A stretch of 64,000 nucleotides of DNA, from contig NC_135903.1 in NCBI RefSeq assembly GCF_964194155.1, forward strand, positions 30,194,001 through 30,258,000. Direction: 5' to 3'. The stretch is from Cetorhinus maximus (taxonomy: Eukaryota). The first letter of the stretch is position 1, and every line of letters begins with the position of its first letter. This document shows positions 5,098 through 52,072 of the stretch, one piece after another. Below the pieces are notes generated by a model. The model was not told where the DNA came from. It searched no databases and worked only from the letters and a program-made list of their open reading frames with translations. Made by a program: the position numbers and the translations under genes.

Positions 5098-6290
5098 AGT
5101 TAATCCTACCACAAACCACACAAATTCTGCAAACACTATAGTATGAAATAGAATCTTGAATATTGTTTACAGGAAACATTTTACCACAGGCAGGATATTT
5201 ATTTTTTAAGAAAATGACAGACACTTCGTCGTTGGGATCAATTACATGCTGAGGAGATTTACATTAATACCTTAATTCCCTTTGAAAGAATGTAAATGTT
5301 TTATCACAGGTCTGTGTAAAGAGGTACGTGTAACCGGAATAAGACACACCGAAGACAAAACCTCTTTGGTCTGATCTTGTAGGGCTCGTAACATGGCCCC
5401 AATTCTTAATGAAATGGCACCCAATTTAACTTATTTGTTCTGTGGCCTTCATAGACTTCTTAGTCTCAATCCTACAATATAGTTTGATAACAGATTCTAG
5501 TGCATATTTCCAATGACAACGGAGTAGAACATGTGAAAGCATTGAAAATGTACCTTGCCTCAGGCAAGATGGCTTTCACAGGCATACTTAACACTTCATT
5601 ATTTTCAATTATTCTAACTTTAACATGAATAAACACGAGTGGGAGAGTGAACTCAAAGGTTGAAATAATCCATACTTGGCAAGCAAGAGGCTGTTTGCGA
5701 ATGCCTTGTTTTGATTTAATTCTTTCCGTTCAAATACATTAATTATTTTTGAAAAACCACAGTACAATCAGGGAGGTCTGTCTGACAAAGTGAAGATGGG
5801 CTTCAGCCGCGCCTCACTTTTGTGCTAATTGCAGCACTCCCTCATACCAGTTTCAGATCGATAGATACTTGCACGATACAAAGAAAGGCAGTTTGTCTAT
5901 GCAGATCTGAAAGGAAACTTTAAAACGAGAGTTTCATGCTTAACACAATGTAACATATCCCTGCAACATTTTCTACCTGTTCCCAGCCCTGTCACAACAA
6001 TGTTAAGCCATTTCTTAACACTTGTACCACTTGACTTAAACTTCTAAACCTTCATATTTTTCTTTATACCTTTATCAAATACTCAGAGGGAAGGTCTCTC
6101 GCTTCTGAGTCAGAAGACTGATTCTCCAGAGTGCTGCACTGTAAGCTCCTGTCTTTCAGGTGAGACATTAAACAGGTGTCCTGTCTGCCCTATCAGGTGG
6201 ATATAAAAGGTCCTGCAGTACTATTTTGAAGCAGAGCAAGGGAATTTTCCTTAGTGTGCTGCAAAATATTTATCCTTCAAGCAACATAAT

Positions 6291-7425
6291 TGTCATGACA
6301 GTGGATCACAGCCCTGAATTACTTACTGACATATTGAACTTGTTAAGTAAGATATGTGTTTTTAAAAAAGACCTACAAGCAAAAGCTGGGTGAGAATGTA
6401 AAGTTACCACTTTCTGCAAAATTCCTATGTGGATTATACTTGACTGACTAGTCCAAAGAGATCCTGGAATGTCACACCTAAAAAGGTGCCAAGGCCCAAT
6501 TCATTCAGAAACACTTGAAAGGAAGAAATGCAATGTAAAAGGCTGGACTTTAATCTCCTGTGGTTGAGGAGACAATGGGGACTGATCACCATATCTCAGC
6601 AGAAACCATCTCCTTTTGAGTAATATCTCAGGATGTGGTAATTGCCTGAGTTGAAAGAAAGCAGATTCTGGGTGAAAGACATGTTTGTTTTTCCCTTCCA
6701 GGAATACACAAGAAAAAGGGTTAAAAAGCCAAACCTGCTCTGTGTGTTCTAGTTCTGGTGTGCTAGTGTGTGCTATGAAGGTCACAACAGGTGAACATCA
6801 ACTGGACATCCCTGCAGCTTACAAGTAAAACTCTCTCTCTTTTGCTGGAGGCAAGTCAGCAAAGCCACAGTCAAAAAGGAAAGGGGACAACCCCTTCAGC
6901 TAACCTGCAGAACCAAGTGTCTCCAAACGCACTGCACAACTGCTTTAGTCAGCTTTACCGGAATCACTCAACTTAATGGCTGCAACATTTCGCCATCTAC
7001 TCCTCACAGACAAGCTAAAGACTGATTTCTATATCTTTTCTGGCTTTAAGTTTTGGACTCGACTTCTCATTCCTGATCTGTGTGTGTGTGTGTGTGTGTG
7101 TGTTGCGTTTTTATTATTTTTTCTCGGGGTTTTAGTAACTAATAAACTTATTCTTCCTTTGACTCAAGAAAGCCTGGTTAAATTGGCTCCTTCTAAAACA
7201 TAAATGTATTTGGACTGGGGAAAGGTATCCATGAGGGAACGGGTCCATTTTAAATTAAACCTTGTTGAGACCAACCGAGGAGGTTGAATAAAGAAGGGGA
7301 GGCAGCTCATTCCTCCTCACCTGGAAACATAAAATCGGGATCCCATTCGGGAAGTTAACAATTTGGGGTATCTCTTCCAGGATCATAACAAATTGGGGGA
7401 CGTCGACTGGAGACCAGTCTTAACA
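6291..7425 (+). mobile_element. Solo LTR (ERV/Gypsy type) inserted in the SINE
   Basis: TGTCATGA...TTAACA termini exactly interrupt the SINE. AATAAA at 7141 and 7288. Degenerate TSD ATAAT/ATCAC. tRNA-Pro-like PBS units at the 3' end. Confidence 0.7.
7079..7102. repeat. (TG)n microsatellite
   Basis: Direct TG run. Confidence 0.95.
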
Positions 7426-8304
7426 ATCACAAAAACAGATTATCTGGTCACTCTCACATTGTTATTTGTGGGAGCTTGCAGTGTGCAAACTGGCAGCCAA
7501 CTGCCCTTCAGCTCTTGTCTTTATTACAACAGTGTCTTCAAAAGTACTTCATTGGCTGCGCAGGACTTTGGCGTGTCCTGAGGTTGAGAAAGATGCAATA
7601 TAAATGCAAATCTTTCTTTTATTTGGTTCTTCCAGCTAATCACCTATTTTCCCAAGAGAAGAAAGCTAGTGAGCTATTTACCCCTTGCAGCAACTTTCCT
7701 TGCTTTGCAATGTGTATCATTTACGTGTTATCAGTGATCCTTTTTGAGCTCAGATTACAAATATTCATGCTCCAAACATCTCATATTTCTAGCGTATTGT
7801 GTAAAGGAAGTTTTTCCGGATCAAAAAAGTTACTTTGCTCATGTGTGGTGTATTTTGCTTGTGTTACGGAGTTTGGGCAATTATCTTACACACTTTATAT
7901 TAAAGTGTTGCTTTGTGGGACAATGCTGCATTATAAGCAAAGGAGCATACATGGTTTCAGGTGCAGACAACACTAGCTTGTGTCCTCACTTCATTCACAC
8001 TGCAGGAAGATGTAAATGGGCGCTGACAGTATTGCCTGCCGTCAGGAGTGTCTCTTGTCCTACTTGTGGGTTTGCTATCAGCCCATCTGTACCAGCCAAT
8101 GATGCTGTTATATGGCCCTTACTTACTTACAACATTGGGAAGATCCAAAGTCAGCCGTGCAGAGTTGGGCATGTTAGCTCAGCAGCTGTGCACCTATAAA
8201 TTGCAGACAGCAGTCCCAGTTTTGTGGCAAGTGCTCCAAATATGCCCCATGGATAAAAGGGCTGAATTCAGAACGCAAGCAGTCTTATTTTATTGAGGCT
8301 TAAA

Positions 8305-23334: not shown

Positions 23335-26300
23335 ATGGCAAGTGCAAGGCCACAGCAGAGCACTGAGCAGGCCAGTCCGGAGGGTGGGGGGCCAGTGTGC
23401 CCCTTGTTTTTCAGATGATTGACTTGCTGCCCTTATTGAGGAGGTGGCAGCACGGTGGAAGGTGCTGGTTCCCCAGGATGGGAGCAGGAGGCGCCCCACA
23501 TGACGAAACATGCCTGGGAGGAGGGGGCAGAGGTGGTGAGCTCCTGCAACGTGGTGCGGCGCACCTGGATCCAGTGTCGCAAGCGCTTCAACGACTTGTG
23601 CTCTGGCAGGGTGAGTACCATGTTGGCATTGGGCATTTAACCCAGCAGGTCAGTTTACCCACCCCTGCTGCAACCCCCCACCCCCAAGTCTGGGTGTAAC
23701 TACTGCACTGAATCATTGATGGCATTAGTCCTTTGCTGGATGGGCCAGCAGATACTGCCCATGCTGAAGTCAACCTGAGAGGGTGATGAGGAGTTGGAGA
23801 GTGACGTAGTTGAATTTGAGACTAGGGTCCTGAATCTTAATAAAGGAAACTACGAAGGTATGAGACGCGAGTTGGCTATGATAGATTGGGAAATATCACT
23901 TAAAGGGATGACGGTGGATAGGCAATGGCAAACATTCAAAGAGCACATGGGTGAACTGCAACAATTGTTTATTCCTGTCTGGCACAAAAGTAAAACAGGA
24001 AAGGTGGCCAAACCATGGCTTACAAGGGAAATTAGAGATAGTATTAGATCCAAGGAAGAGGCATGCAAATTGTACAGAAAAAACAGACCTGAGGATTGGG
24101 AGCAGTTTAGAATTCAGCAAAGGAGGACCAAGGGATTGATTAAGAAGGGGAAAATAGAGTATGAGAGTAAGCTTGCAGGGAACATAAAAACTGACTGTAA
24201 AAGTTTCTATAGGTATGTGAAGAGAAAAAGATTGGTGAAGACAAATGTAGGTCCCTTACAGTCAGAAACAAGGGAATTTATAATGGGGAACAAAGAAATG
24301 GCTGACCAACTAAATACATACTTTAGTTCTGTCTTCACAAAGGAGGACACAAATAACATACCAGAAATGTTGGGGAACACAGGGTTTAGTGAGAGGGAGG
24401 AACTGAAAGAAATCAGTATTAGTAGGGAAATGGTGTTGGGGAAATTGATGGGATTGAAGGCCGATAAATCCCCGGGGCCTGATAATCTACATCCCAGAGT
24501 ACTTAAGGAAGTGGCCCTAGAAATAGTGGATGCGTTAGTGGTCATATTCCGAGATTCTATAGACTCTGGAACAGTTCCTACAGATTGGAAAGTAGCTAAT
24601 GTAACCCCACTATTTAAAAAGGGAGGTAGAGAGAAAACAGGGAATTATAGACCAGTCAGCCTGGCGTCGGTAGTGGGGAAAATTCTAGAGTGTATCATAA
24701 CAGATTTAATAGCTGAGCACGTGGAAAACAGTGGCAAAATTGGACAGAGTCAGCATGGATTTACAAAAGGGAAATCATGCTTGACAAATCTACTGGAATT
24801 TTTTTGGGGATGTAACTAGCAGAGTTGATGAGGGGGAGCCAGTGGATGTGGATTATTTGGACTTTCAGAAGGCTTTCGACAAAGCCCCACATAAGAGATT
24901 GGTGTGTAAGATTAAAGCGCATGGGATTAGGGGTAGTGTATTGAGATGGATAGAAAAACCGGTTGGCAGACAGGAAACAAAGAGTAGGAATAAATGGGTC
25001 TTTTTCCAAATGGCAGGCAGTGACTAGTGGGGTACTGCAGGGATCGGTGCTGGGACCCCCAGCTATTCACAACATGTATTAATGATTTAGAAGAGGGAAC
25101 TAAATGTAATGTCTCCAAATTTGCAGATGACACAAAGCTGGGTGGGAGGGTGAGCTGTGAGGAGGATGCAGAGATGCTTCAGTGTGGTTTGGACAAGCTG
25201 AGTAAGTGGGTAAATGCATGGCAGATACGGTATAATGTGGATAAATGTGAGGTTATCCACTTTGGTGGCAAAAACAGGAAGGCAGATTATTACCTGAATG
25301 GCTATAAATTGAGAGAGGGGAATGTGCAACGAGACCTGGGTGTCCTTGTACACCAGTCACTGAAGGTAAGCATGCAGGTGCAGCAGGCGATAAAGAAAGC
25401 AAGCGGTATGTTGGCCTTCATAGCGAGAGGATTTGAGTACAGTAACAGGGATGTCTTGCTGCAATTGTACAGGGCCTTGGTGAGACCACACCTGGAATAT
25501 TGTGTGTAGTTTTGGTCTCCTTATCTGAGGAAGGATGTTCTTGCTATAGAGGGAGTGCAGCGAAGGTTTACCAGACTGATTCCTGGGATAGCGGGACTTA
25601 CATATGAGGAGAGATTGAGTCGGTTAGGATTATATTCATTGGAGTTCAGAAGAATGAGGGGGGATTGCATAGAAACCTATAAAATTCTAACCGGACTAGA
25701 CAGGGTGGATGCAGGAAGGATGTTCCTGATGGTGGGGGAGTCCAGAACCAGGGGTCACAGTCTGAGGATATGGGGTAGACCATTTAGGACTGAGATGAAG
25801 AGAAATTTCTTCACCCAGAGAGTGGTGAGCCTGTGGAATTTGCTAGCACAGAAATTCGAGAAGGAGTTAGATATAGCTCTTGCGGCGAAAGAGATCAAAG
25901 GATATGGGGAGAAAGCAGGAGCAGGCTATTGAGTTGGATCATCAGCCATGATCATAATGAATGGAGGAGCAGGCTTGAAGGGCCGAATGGCCTACTCCTG
26001 CTCCTATTTTCTATGTATGTTTCTATGTATGTGTTTTGCCCCCGCAGCATGTGTTACACTGAGTCCCACATGACTGGTTTGGGGGCAACCTGGAGGAGCT
26101 GCACCTAAGCACTGTGTTAGAGCTCCAGGACATGTCCAAGTCAGGGTGATGAGATGCTGGGAGGGGAGCTTCAAGGTGTCATGGCAACAAACCATCTGCT
26201 GTCCTCTGCGCTCCATGTGCTTGCGCCATGTATGGAAGGATATACCGAGTGGTGCCTAATGTGATGTAGGCAGCATGTGTCCAAGGGGGGGTGGGGGTGT

Positions 26301-47404: not shown

Positions 47405-50400
47405 AAGAATCATCCCAGGTTTGCACTAAGTGCGGTAGCGGGCTGGAAAAACGGCGTTTTGCCCGCTGGCTGCAATGGCGGCTTCTCACGCCATATTGTC
47501 CCAAACCCGCTGTATTAATTAAGTAATCCCAGGAAACACGCTGTTTCCATGGCGGATGAGCTCTCATTCGGCCGATATGCCACCACCTTGCTGCTTCATC
47601 ACACTTGGCACCATATTTAAAGTGCAGCCGCACACACTGCTCAGTGCTTCCAGCCCACGATTGCTGAACAGAAGACATGGCCCCAAAAGACAAAAAAACT
47701 GCAGCCCCCAGGTTCAATAACGCGTCCCTCAAGCAACTTTTGGATGCAGTGGAGGCTCGCCATGATGTCCTCTACCCCCACTCCGGCCGCATGACAAGCA
47801 GCAACCTCACTAATCTGGCGTGGGAGGCGGTGGCAGCAATGGTCAGTGCTAACGCCCTGCAAACGAGGACAGCCACCCAGTGCCACAAGAGGATGAAGGG
47901 TCTCTTTCATTCCGCCAGGATAAGTCACTCTTCTCATCACTCTCAACTCACACATTCACAAACCCATCACAGATCCACAGGGATCTCACTCACTGCTAAT
48001 TCAAGGGACATCACCATTCACTCTCTCACACACAACTTCATTGCCCTCATCCTGTCCATGACACGACTCACCACCCAAAATGCCAGGCATACTTATTATT
48101 CAGCGTGGCAGGCATCCTGCTTACACTCTCCATCTCTATTCATGCAGGATAAGTTGGCACACAACAAGAGGGAGAGGTCGCAGACTGGTGGAGAAATGCC
48201 TGAAATCAGGGTCCTCATGTACTTTGAAAACAGAGCCATCCAGCTGGCTGGCGAGGATCTGGACCGGTCCTGTGCTGACGGTGAGGTCGGCGCTGCTCTA
48301 CCAAGTGAGGATCCAGCAGTGCAACATCCATCAGACAACCATGCTGTGAGTGATGTGTCCTGTTTCACAGACCACTGGCATGCACTAATGACCTTTCTTT
48401 GCTTTCGCAGCCACACCTGAGAAACAGCCGACAAAGTCCACAAACCAGGGCCTCCAATCGAGCCCCGAAGGAACCACTGAAGAGGAATCTGAAGGCACCT
48501 TCATTGAGGACCTGTCACAGCGCTCACCCACGCCTTCCACCAGTCAGAGGCACACACTTCGGTGGGATCTAGCTTTAGCGCAGCCTCAGAATCACAATCT
48601 GGTGAGCACATCGCACTTCCTGATCCACAGCAGGCAGCAGCAGGTACCTCCCTGGCATCTGGCACTCGGAGGACTGCTGGAGGACAGAAATTTACTGAGT
48701 CTGAGTCCGATGACAAGCCTCGGGACTTGGCCATGTCACAGTTGCTGGAGCTGCAAAGGCAAGTTCAGAAACATCAGGAAGGGATGTCCGCTGCACTCCT
48801 CAGATTGCAAGGCACAATGGAGGAAACATAGAAACATAGAAACTAGGAGCAGGAGTAGGTCATTCGGCCCTTCGAGCCTGCTCCACCATTCAATATGATC
48901 ATGGCTGATCCTCTATCTCAATGCCATACTCCCACTCTCTCCCCATACCCCTCGACTCCTTTAGAGTCTTGAAATCTATCTATGTCCTTCTTAAATATAT
49001 TCAGTGACTTGGCCTCCACAGCCTCCTGTGGTAGAGAATTTCACAGGCTCACCACCCTCTGAATGAAGACGTTTCTCCTCATCTCAGCCCTAAATGGCCT
49101 ACCCCATATCCTGAGATTATGACTCCTTGTTCTAGACACCCCAGCCAGAGGAAACATCATCCCTGCATCCAGTCTGTGCAGCCCTGTCAGAATTTTATAT
49201 GTTTCAGTGAGATCCCCTCTCATTCTTCTAAACTCCAGTGAATACAGACCTAGTTGGCCCAGTCTCTCCTCATGCGAAAATCCTGCCAAGCCAGGAATCA
49301 GTCTGCTGAGCCTTCGCCACACTCTTTCTATGGAAAGTATATCCTTTCTTAGGTAAGGAGACCAAAACTGCACACAATAGTCCAGGTGTGGTCTCATCAT
49401 GGCCTTGTACAGCTGCAGTAAGACATCCTTGCCCCTGTACTCAAGCCCTCTTGCAATTTAGGCCAACATACCACTTGCCTTCGTAACCGCTTGCTGCACC
49501 TGCACGCTTGCTTTCAGTGATTGGTGTACAAGGACACCCAGGTCCCCTTGAATGTCAACATTTCCCAATCTATCACCATTTAAATAATGCTGTGCCATTT
49601 GGTTTTTCTTACCAAAGTGGATAACTTAACACTTATCCACATTATACTGCACCTGCCTTGTATTTTCACACTCACTCAACCTGTCTAAATTGCCTTGAAG
49701 CCCCTTACCATTCTCCTCACCACTCACATTCCTACCCAGTTTTGTGTCATCAGCAAACTTGGAAATATTACATTTGGTTCCCTAATCCAAATCATTAATA
49801 TATATAGTGAATAGCTGGGGCCCAAGCACATTTCCCTGTGGTACCCCACTAGTTACCGCCTGCCTTTCCAAAAAAGACCCATTTATTCCTACTGTTTGTT
49901 TCCTGCCTGCTAACCAATTCTCAATCCATTCCAATATATTACTCCCAACCCCATGTGTTTTAATTTTTCACACTAACCTCTTATGTGGGACTTTATCGAA
50001 AGCTTTCTGAAAATCCAAATACACCACATTCACTGGTTCTCCCTTACCTATTCTGCTAGTTACCTCTTCAAAAAGCTCCAGTAGGTTTGTCAAACATGAT
50101 TTCTCTTTCATAAACCCATGTTGACTTTGTCTAATCCCATTGATATTTTCTAAGTGTTCTGTTATCACATCCTTTATAATAGACTCTAGCATTTTCCCTA
50201 CCACTGATGTTAGGCTAACTGGTCTGTAATTCCGTTTTTTCCCTCCCCATTTTTTTAAATAGCGGGGTTACATTTGCCATTGCCCAATCTGCTGGGACTA
50301 TTCCAGAATTTACAGAGTTTTGGAAGATAACAACCAACACATTCAATTTCCATGGCAACCTCCTTTAGTACCCTAGGATATAGATTATCAGGCCCTGGAG

Positions 50401-52072
50401 ATTTATCAGCTTTCAATCCCATTAATTTCTCCAGCACTTTTTTTTTAGTAATATTAATTCCCTTCAATTCCTCCTTCTCACTAGACCCTTGATTCCCCAG
50501 TGTTTCTGGGGAGTTATTTGTGTCTTCCTCCGTGAAGAAAGAACTAAAGTAGTTATTGAATTGCTCTGCCATTTCCTTGTTCTCTATTATAAATTCTCCC
50601 ATTTTGGACTGTAAGGGACCTACATTTGTCTTCACCAATCTTTTTCTTCTTCCATACTTGTAGAAGCTTTTGCAGTCCTCTTTTATGTTCCTTGGAAGTT
50701 TACTCTCATACTCTACTTCTCCCCTCTTAATCAATCACTCGGTCCTTCTTTGCTGAATTCTAAACTGCTCCCAATCCTCAGGCTTGCTACTTTTTCTAGC
50801 AACTTTATATGACTCCTCTTTGAATCTAATACTATCCTTAATTTCTATTGTTAGCCATGGCTGGGGTCACTTTTGTGGTTGTGTTTCTGCACCAGTTGCA
50901 ATGCATACATTCATTCTTTAAATATTAGCCATTGCCTATCCACTATCGTGCCTTTTAATGAAGTTCCCCAATACAACTTAGCCAACTCATGACTCATACC
51001 ATCGTAGTTTCCTTTGTTTAGATTTAAGACCTTAGTTTTGGATTGACTACTAGTATTTGGACTACTTCACTTTCCAACCTAAGGAAAAAGTCTATCATGT
51101 TATAGTCACTGTTCCCTAAAGGACCCCACACAACAAGTTTACTAATTAACCCCTTCTCATTGCACAAAACCAAATCTAGGATAGCCTGTTCCCTAGTTAG
51201 TTCCTCTACGTACTGGTCTAAAAACCACCTCGTACACACTCCAGGAATTCATCTGCCACAGCATTATTGCTAATTTGGTTTGCAAATGTAGATTAAAGTC
51301 ACCCATGATTATTATAGCACCCTTGTTACACGCATCTCTATTTTCCTGTTTAATGTCATCTCTTACCTTACCGCTACTGTTTGGAGGCCTACAGACAGCT
51401 CCCACTAATGTTATTTGGCCCTTGTTGCTTCCTAGTTCCACCCAGACTGACTCTGCATCTAGATTTTCTGAGCCAATATCCTCTCTCACTATTGCACTGA
51501 TTTCATCCTTAACTAACAATGCCACACCATCTCCTTTTGGTCCTTCTTAAATATAGAATACTCTTGGATATTCAGTTCCCAGCCTTGGTCATCCTGCAGC
51601 CATGTCTCTGGAATCACAATCATATCATACCCATTTACACCTATTTGTGCTGTTAATTCATCTACCTTATTGCGAATGCTCCATGCATTCAGATAGTGCC
51701 TTTAAATGTCTTTTTACACATCTTTTTTAAAAAGACGAGTCTAAAGGCACTGTATCTGAATGCACAGAGCATGCGCAATAATGAGGAGCTGGTCCACCTT
51801 CAGTTTGTGGTGATAGCGCTGGCATGCCAACGCCATCGAGGTCAACACTGGTAGGACGGCAGCTGCCATGGAGACCTTGGTCCAGGATGTCGACCCTGCA
51901 CTGCTGCATGGGCTGAACTCCATCACTGATGCCATAGTTGGCCTCCAACAGTGGGTACAAGAGAGGGGTGTGGGGCAGCTCGACAGATTCCCCTTCTCCT
52001 CAAGGAATCAGCCAGGGGCTCTTGGGCACCCATAGGGAGGAGGATCAGCATGGGCCATCCACCCAGGCATTA
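47405..52072 (+). mobile_element. Harbinger fragment with a Myb/SANT gene, interrupted by CR1 at 48825-51779
   Basis: MAPKDKKTAAPRFNNASLKQLLDAVEARHDVLYP..AWEAVAAMVSANALQTRTATQCHKRM. First donor mutated (ATAAGT). Exon 2 DKLAHNKRERSQTGG. Coding-like sequence resumes after 51780. Confidence 0.85.
48825..51779 (-). mobile_element. CR1 LINE covering most of ORF2 (endonuclease + RT), decayed
   Basis: VALLVK, ESVWVEL, CRPPNS, MGDFN, AILDLVL, KSPGPD, YLDFQKAFDKVPH, RPHLDYCVQFWSP. (GAAACATA)n tail at the left; TSD AATG(G)AGGA at 48816-48824 and 51780-51787. Confidence 0.96.

Follow-up and report, generated by a model that had tools for sequence, protein, structure and literature searches.

In the yeast retrotransposon Ty3, synthesis of the first plus-strand strong-stop DNA extends over 12 nt of the tRNA, and this dead-end product is then displaced (PMC5371799). 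Transfer is made by a second strong-stop DNA, which ends at U5, so that the element does not take its primer-binding site (PBS) from the tRNA (PMC5371799 and PMC7472051). Retroviruses inherit the PBS from the tRNA half of the time (PMC4549124), and the available part of a review describes their plus-strand transfer as intramolecular (PMC12789967). HIV-1 isolates of the MAL type have a duplicated piece of the PBS fixed in their lineage, namely a single partial copy that lies in the leader, 3′ of the PBS (PMC3185550). Helenus and TRIMp3 carry tRNA-related sequence inside their LTRs, in the case of Helenus a tRNA-gene-like piece within non-coding mini-elements (PMC10886601, in the excerpts available). 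In the openly accessible literature (subscription journals, Repbase and Dfam lay outside the scope of the search), we found no description of LTRs that contain PBS arrays. Dual-PBS vectors have reportedly been the subject of earlier work. Here, we describe a solo LTR of Cetorhinus maximus that ends in an array of three dead tRNA-Pro primer-site modules, which we consider to have arisen and been rearranged through strand transfers out of register in the course of reverse transcription (probability about 0.68).

The window, a stretch of 64,000 nt (contig NC_135903.1, positions 30,194,001 to 30,258,000) from a genome of 4.0 Gb, contains the LTR within a SINE (Table 1). The 5′ part of the host SINE lies to the left of 6290, and the flanks of the LTR are joined in three uninterrupted SINE copies, which represent empty sites and bear out the sequence-only reading of a solo LTR inserted into a SINE. 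The two copies of the target-site duplication differ at one position, and there is one spare base. Contigs from a second species span the junction at 7425 with 5 differences in 145 nt (16 to 19 differences in 441 nt of the flank of the insertion), and the insertion is therefore older than the split from that species. A second AATAAA is located near 7141; if the AATAAA next to the array served as the poly(A) signal, the array would make up most of U5. No tRNA gene was found in the window. Two further structures were observed in it: inverted repeats at 20-454 and 1641-2079 with 93 to 97% identity, which form a fold-back structure, and two long inverted repeat copies at 23821-26016 and 48834-51036 with 77 to 84% identity.

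Table 1. Features of the solo LTR, its terminal array and the insertion site, in window coordinates
Feature	Position	Strand	Basis
Left target-site duplication ATAA, with a spare T at 6290	6286..6289	+	Sequence and empty SINE sites
Solo LTR (TG...CA) of a predicted Gmr1-type Ty3/gypsy family	6291..7425	+	77-84% to other copies; internal domains of relatives
(TG)12 microsatellite within the LTR	7079..7103	+	Tandem Repeats Finder run
AATAAA just 5′ of the array	7287..7292	+	Sequence
Pre-array LTR end with decayed TAACA	7304..7334	+	Comparison with the unit-less related family
Unit A, dead Pro-PBS copy without gap, plus TAACA	7335..7360	+	Isotype scoring
Unit B, dead Pro-PBS copy in which 2 nt are inserted after the fifth nucleotide, plus TAACA	7364..7390	+	
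Unit C, dead Pro-PBS copy with a 2- to 3-nt insertion and a longer tail	7394..7425	+	
Right target-site duplication ATCA	7426..7429	+	Sequence and empty SINE sites
3′ part of the host SINE split by the LTR (end approximate)	7426..7620	+	SINE copies and second-species contigs

The letters and periodic units that had been reported for 7326..7425 are present as described. Each unit consists of a TGGGG-type start, a body resembling a primer site and a closing TAACA, and the units are separated by spacers of 3 nt; the TAACA motifs start at 7356, 7386 and 7421 (spacing of 30 and 35), and that of unit C is the true integration end of the LTR. From the window alone, the array gives little signal. It escaped Tandem Repeats Finder, a repeat search yielded a single 30-nt pair at 70%, and two matches to the junction pattern were reached in 18 of 100 shuffles. 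It is the relatives in the family that decide whether the array is real.

To define the family, 49 natural fragments from five elements were scanned for protein domains. The internal regions encode a SCAN gag, a CCHC knuckle and an integrase, followed by reverse transcriptase (RT) and RNase H. The SCAN-type capsid domain (PF02023) was above the cut-off in two of the five elements (L273 and L280), and H2C2/rve preceded RVT_1 or RT_RNaseH in four (L189, L197, L280 and L281); the scan gave no RT match in L273. A Pfam search of fragments of L007 alone returned only a subthreshold AhpC-TSA match, and the 30 matches of a first PBS search belonged to other families, none of them matching this LTR. 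TG...CA termini, a target duplication, a PBS 2 to 4 nt after the 5′ LTR and a purine tract before the 3′ LTR were all found, as is typical of LTR retroelements. Among 13 pairs with both flanks read, 4 had exact 4-bp duplications and 6 had duplications that differ by one base. On the basis of the SCAN gag and the integrase-before-RT order, the family is predicted to be an old Gmr1-type Ty3/gypsy retrotransposon. That domain order is given for Gmr1-like elements in the accessible part of bioRxiv 10.1101/2025.03.03.638093, and the available portions of this source and of PMC4592553 indicate that the SCAN-type gag, the CCHC knuckle, the absence of a detected env domain and the abundance in a fish-like genome are shared as well. 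The MLV-type PBS had implied a gammaretrovirus-like ERV (ERV1) or MLV-like provirus, which was rejected since the integrase comes first and no env match was obtained; about 430 bp separate RNase H from the 3′ LTR in L189. What sets the family apart from Gmr1-like elements is a U5 that ends in one to five PBS-derived modules. In contrast to the tRNA-gene-like LTR promoter and the non-coding nature of Helenus and TRIMp3, as described in the accessible text of PMC10886601, its LTRs hold short antisense primer-site copies and its elements are coding (gag-pol).

With the last 435 bp of the LTR as the query, 4459 candidates were obtained, of which 40 were scored and the best 30 retrieved. All 30, which include the window copy and were chosen for the likeness of their ends, showed the A-B-C end, and many of them were flanked by 4-bp target duplications. 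An anchor just upstream of the array matched exactly at 746 places in the genome (control, 0), and the first 90 anchor copies in genome order, picked regardless of the array, served as a census. At least one unit was present in 82 of these 90 copies, while none of 180 control stretches could be parsed, so the array is a family-wide trait and not the one-off duplication that the sequence-only reading had named as its refutation. The array types were AC (29 copies), BC (21), ABC (17), C (7), other partial arrays (8) and unparsed ends (8), the last being broken-off copies or other unit types. Regular arrays (C, AC, BC or ABC) thus accounted for 74 copies, and all 74 ended in C; one copy of the 90 (L225) had five units. 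Minor subfamilies were also seen, with a shorter A and an X unit (L181, L218, L219, L222, L225 and L299) or with other unit types (L234 and L246, three unclassified units). The copy pairs L261/L262 and L270/L271 have identical flanks and are segmental duplicates rather than separate insertions.

Array type follows the descent of the LTR body. A first tree comprised 68 rows (23 of the 90 copies were left out because their bodies were short or broken or their arrays were of another type), and 8 more rows were left out of a second tree. Array type changed 11 times on the LTR-body tree, compared to 36.4 times in shuffles, and none of 200 shuffles gave so low a value. AC copies had longer end branches (0.112) than ABC or BC copies (0.094; P = 0.003 and 0.01). 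The root on a related family that has no units falls in AC, a weak root that depends on two rows with 17 to 21% of the columns. The likely order is AC, then ABC, then BC, with C-only arrays having arisen several times. Unit B was gained between A and C, losses of units recur, and fresh units appear at the PBS side. The unit-less family (L389-L392) carries a near-perfect Pro PBS directly after the pre-array LTR end and has only the 3′ 200 bp of the LTR and the leader in common with the window family.

Both LTRs of an element carry the array and unit number varies, which answers two of the checks named in the sequence-only reading. Among 32 two-LTR elements read by eye (L283 was excluded, its second LTR being another 5′ LTR), the same array was found at both ends in 19. 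Extra units were confined to the 5′ junction in five, three of which had a tRNA-form unit; the 3′ LTR lacked A in one, the 5′ side had fewer units in three, and four were damaged. The LTR pairs are 10 to 16% diverged. The family therefore differs from the HIV-1 MAL type, as far as the accessible sections of PMC3185550 describe it, in that whole modules of LTR end plus PBS lie upstream of the PBS, inside both LTRs, and have spread with solo LTRs.

The units were compared with tRNA genes of 10 isotypes from the same genome, an incomplete set. Proline was the best isotype for A (37 of 46), B (33 of 38), C (58 of 74) and the real PBS (56 of 61), its score was reached by at most 1 of 300 shuffles, and glutamine was never best alone; the family mode of unit A matches Pro at 15 of 18 positions when CpG decay is forgiven, and in unit B the 3′ 12 nt are tRNA-like. 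The units are thus copies of a tRNA-Pro PBS, as proposed, whereas the suggested Gln origin of the first unit was rejected. With all units derived from Pro, a repeat-spacer record of several tRNAs fails too, as does a CRISPR-like memory array, for which constant repeats with spacers of varied origin were not found. Repeated capture of the PBS into U5 stands as the best reading, and the fresh additions described below carry tRNA sequence; the notion of a primer record of different tRNAs does not. Two regions rich in tRNA genes were also observed: G000:C32:8.8-16.3 Mb holds many tRNA-Pro gene-like copies, a large part of them changed at position 59, a variant that fits units A and C better by one base, and G000:C35:9.03-9.13 Mb holds a tandem tRNA-Gln gene array with periods of about 1 to 2.8 kb.

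The real PBS, located 3 nt past the LTR end, forms a median of 10 contiguous pairs with the tRNA and then departs from it, and no tRNA matching this genomic form was found in the incomplete set of 10 isotypes. The units form only 5 to 6 contiguous pairs at the primer end, the insertion in B and C lying 5 to 6 nt from it. For the last 10 nt of the tRNA copy, the order is reversed: the medians, measured on decayed copies, were -8.2 kcal/mol for B and -7.4 kcal/mol for C, compared to -4.7 kcal/mol for the real PBS. Self-folding medians were -6.7 for C, -2.8 for A, -3.0 for B and -2.2 for a perfect PBS, and hairpin occlusion was rejected as a general device of the units because only C folds clearly.

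These pairing data bear on a functional reading in which the units offer alternative sites for priming, or form a decoy that catches 3′ tRNA fragments or PBS-binding repressors, and in which the array keeps a record of several tRNAs; we regard this reading as very improbable. The total duplex energy with the tRNA end is similar for B and C (-23) and the real PBS (-24.8), and junctions such as C-B-PBS in an element with C-only LTRs (L335) could stem from priming at B; as traces of priming within the array, L335 and L306 are ambiguous. However, the pairing of the units breaks 5 to 6 nt from the primer end, no intact LTR among the 90 ended before C, and use of A, B or C for priming has left no clear trace in the regular arrays, all of which terminate with C; this speaks against routine use as priming sites. 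Mammalian 3′-tRFs target PBS-derived sites (PMC12853362, accessible part), which would suit a decoy, but KRAB-ZFPs such as ZFP809 are confined to tetrapods with few exceptions in the available text of PMC4592553, and the units decayed like the LTR body after insertion. At non-CpG sites of 19 LTR pairs, 131 of 1052 positions (0.125) differed in the units and 397 of 3136 (0.127) in the adjacent body (P = 0.91), so host-side constraint is not indicated and a decoy kept by the host is not supported; neutral decay after insertion is compatible with a decoy role during the active period of the element. A lower divergence of units among copies (0.11 to 0.12 versus 0.15 to 0.19) was set aside because the copies had been chosen by unit quality.

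Evidence on how units arise came from the 5′ junctions. Of 62 junctions in which C is followed by TGGGGG, 61 were classified: 47 had the genomic form, 8 the tRNA form by score, and 6 were unclear. PBS matches were bimodal, with 7 of the 61 at 16 to 18 of 18 and the remainder at 14 or fewer. Setting aside one doubtful case (L264) and one with a foreign LTR (L277), six family copies of the tRNA form remained, and a unit tail followed the tRNA form in four of these six, the other two standing in register, but the genomic form in none of 47 (P = 5e-5). Another 73 junctions were selected independently through the 3′ half of the real PBS and read by eye; a tRNA-form unit lay upstream in four clear cases (L323, L356, L360 and L372) and two probable ones (L330 and L412). 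The typical product reads B-C, a tRNA form with the tail of B, C again, and the real PBS (L083 and L353; L074 and L288 are alike), and these extra units are absent from the 3′ LTR of the insertion concerned. A strict search gave six matches and none in the control; two of the six belong to other families. These are two Pro-primed families (L060/L358 at C35:10273725 and L354 at C3:192978912), each with a doubled junction made up of a near-perfect PBS, a short tail ending in TAACA and a second, more divergent PBS. In six relatives of L060 (L054-L059), the PBS occurs only once.

Our account starts from the observed sequences, their sidedness and their pairing ranks; the strand and step of origin, and the entry of the units into both LTRs one cycle later, are presumed by analogy with yeast Ty3. 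Ending in a tRNA copy, the first plus-strand strong-stop DNA would normally be a dead end but would sometimes complete the transfer. Since its last 10 nt pair better with B or C than with the mismatched PBS, its 3′ end would land at least one slot upstream and duplicate the module of LTR end plus PBS. If the downstream PBS then served for priming in the following cycle, both LTRs would acquire the extra unit. Slips in the opposite direction would remove units, and internal units, no longer corrected against the tRNA, would decay. The mismatched PBS would persist because the PBS of Ty3-type elements is not inherited from the tRNA. The near-perfect PBS of the unit-less related family and the doubled junctions in two other families are consistent with this model. 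Against it stand the 10 to 16% divergence of the copies, the chimera described below, which is a single locus, and the 3 of 32 elements with fewer 5′ units.

The main weakness of the transfer model is a second reading open to most tRNA-form units, in which the first 10 nt of the real PBS are joined at CTCG to the 3′ half of B or C. Units might then be gained and lost by template switching or slippage between the PBS and its look-alikes without any tRNA being copied, an explanation that we consider unlikely. The real PBS, B and C share TGGGG and CTCG, so that such a hybrid equals the tRNA form, and plain duplications (L219, L370 and L379) and deletions of units do occur, as do several origins of C-only arrays on the tree; the 5′ extras of L335 and L336 are of old unit types and not of the tRNA form. 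Yet the reciprocal hybrid at the common CTCG was found in none of the 73 junctions read by eye, among which one deletion at another microhomology was noted, and in-register tRNA forms would need two switches. Only L372, in which one base is present in the tRNA and absent from both parents, the solo LTR L071, which carries a tRNA-form unit, and the chimera L277 escape the hybrid reading, and the contrast of four to six tRNA-form extras with no reciprocal product is modest. In-register tRNA forms (L076, L086 and L393) might have come from recombination with a perfect-PBS relative. Unit B looks like a hybrid of C and the tRNA, and the formation of A, B and C as such was not observed. In L071 (1519-1545), the tRNA-form unit continues with sequence that resembles the tRNA-Pro T loop, with 21 of 24 letters matching and a single change opposite position 58; primer read-through that landed on the AAC of the LTR end might, judging from this one copy, have seeded the first unit.

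In the chimera L277 (G000:C15:33369200-33377500, about 180-2135), the 5′ LTR is 74% like another family (L037) and is followed by a tRNA-form unit, the units of the window family and the 3′ LTR of the window family. The flanks are colinear in a LINE with a 4-nt overlap, which indicates one target site. This element would be the product of an intermolecular plus-strand transfer at one locus, and an RNA template switch could not supply a whole foreign 5′ LTR including U3.

The constant position of C also fits selection on the element for an auxiliary site that pairs with the 5′ strand of the tRNA T arm and offsets the short PBS. This can hold together with out-of-register transfer, and it resembles the HIV primer activation signal (PMC3185550, in the sections available) or the bipartite PBS of Ty1 and Ty3; we nonetheless think it rather improbable. 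Unit C pairs with the 20 tRNA nucleotides next to the primer end at a median of -21.9 kcal/mol, compared to -14.0 kcal/mol for shuffles and -14.2 kcal/mol for a perfect PBS, and the 35 nt before the PBS gave -21.2 versus -12.8 here and -9.6 versus -10.4 in perfect-PBS families. In cofolding with the whole tRNA, however, C plus PBS bound more weakly than the PBS alone in five of five copies. Part of the match comes free from the self-complementary T stem, a stretch further upstream also beats its shuffle in perfect-PBS families (-14.0 versus -9.5), another unit adjoins the PBS in 4 of 30 junctions, and C is perhaps last merely as the carrier of the integration end.

Under the transfer model, the family resembles Ty1 and Ty3, as portrayed in the accessible parts of PMC5371799 and PMC7472051, in that 47 of 61 copies keep a genomic PBS unlike the tRNA, as expected of a dead-end strong-stop DNA. 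It differs from them in the minority that carries the tRNA form, mostly out of register, and in the one copy that joins two families; the writing of tRNA sequence into the element recalls retroviral PBS inheritance (PMC4549124). The array indicates no host function, and for such a role we found no evidence; it is most likely a by-product of transfer. For annotation, tools that end the LTR at the first PBS-like site misplace the boundary by 30 to 100 bp. Measured against the yeast rule that the primer tRNA of Ty1/Ty3-type elements is not inherited and the retroviral rule of intramolecular plus-strand transfer, the family would constitute a fossil record of exceptions, which span many independent insertions and would have a simple cause in a mismatched PBS beside better-matching relics. 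The locus and its relatives thus give population evidence on how PBS arrays form, and they point to a route for LTR exchange between families. We tentatively suggest that the tRNA-bearing strong-stop DNA of Ty3/gypsy elements may be a working germ-line route, which would write the primer out of register, ratchet the LTR end longer in PBS-sized steps and let families with the same primer exchange entire LTRs within a single round of reverse transcription by way of dead primer-site landing pads (L277), with unit C as a relic turned into a second tRNA-pairing site.
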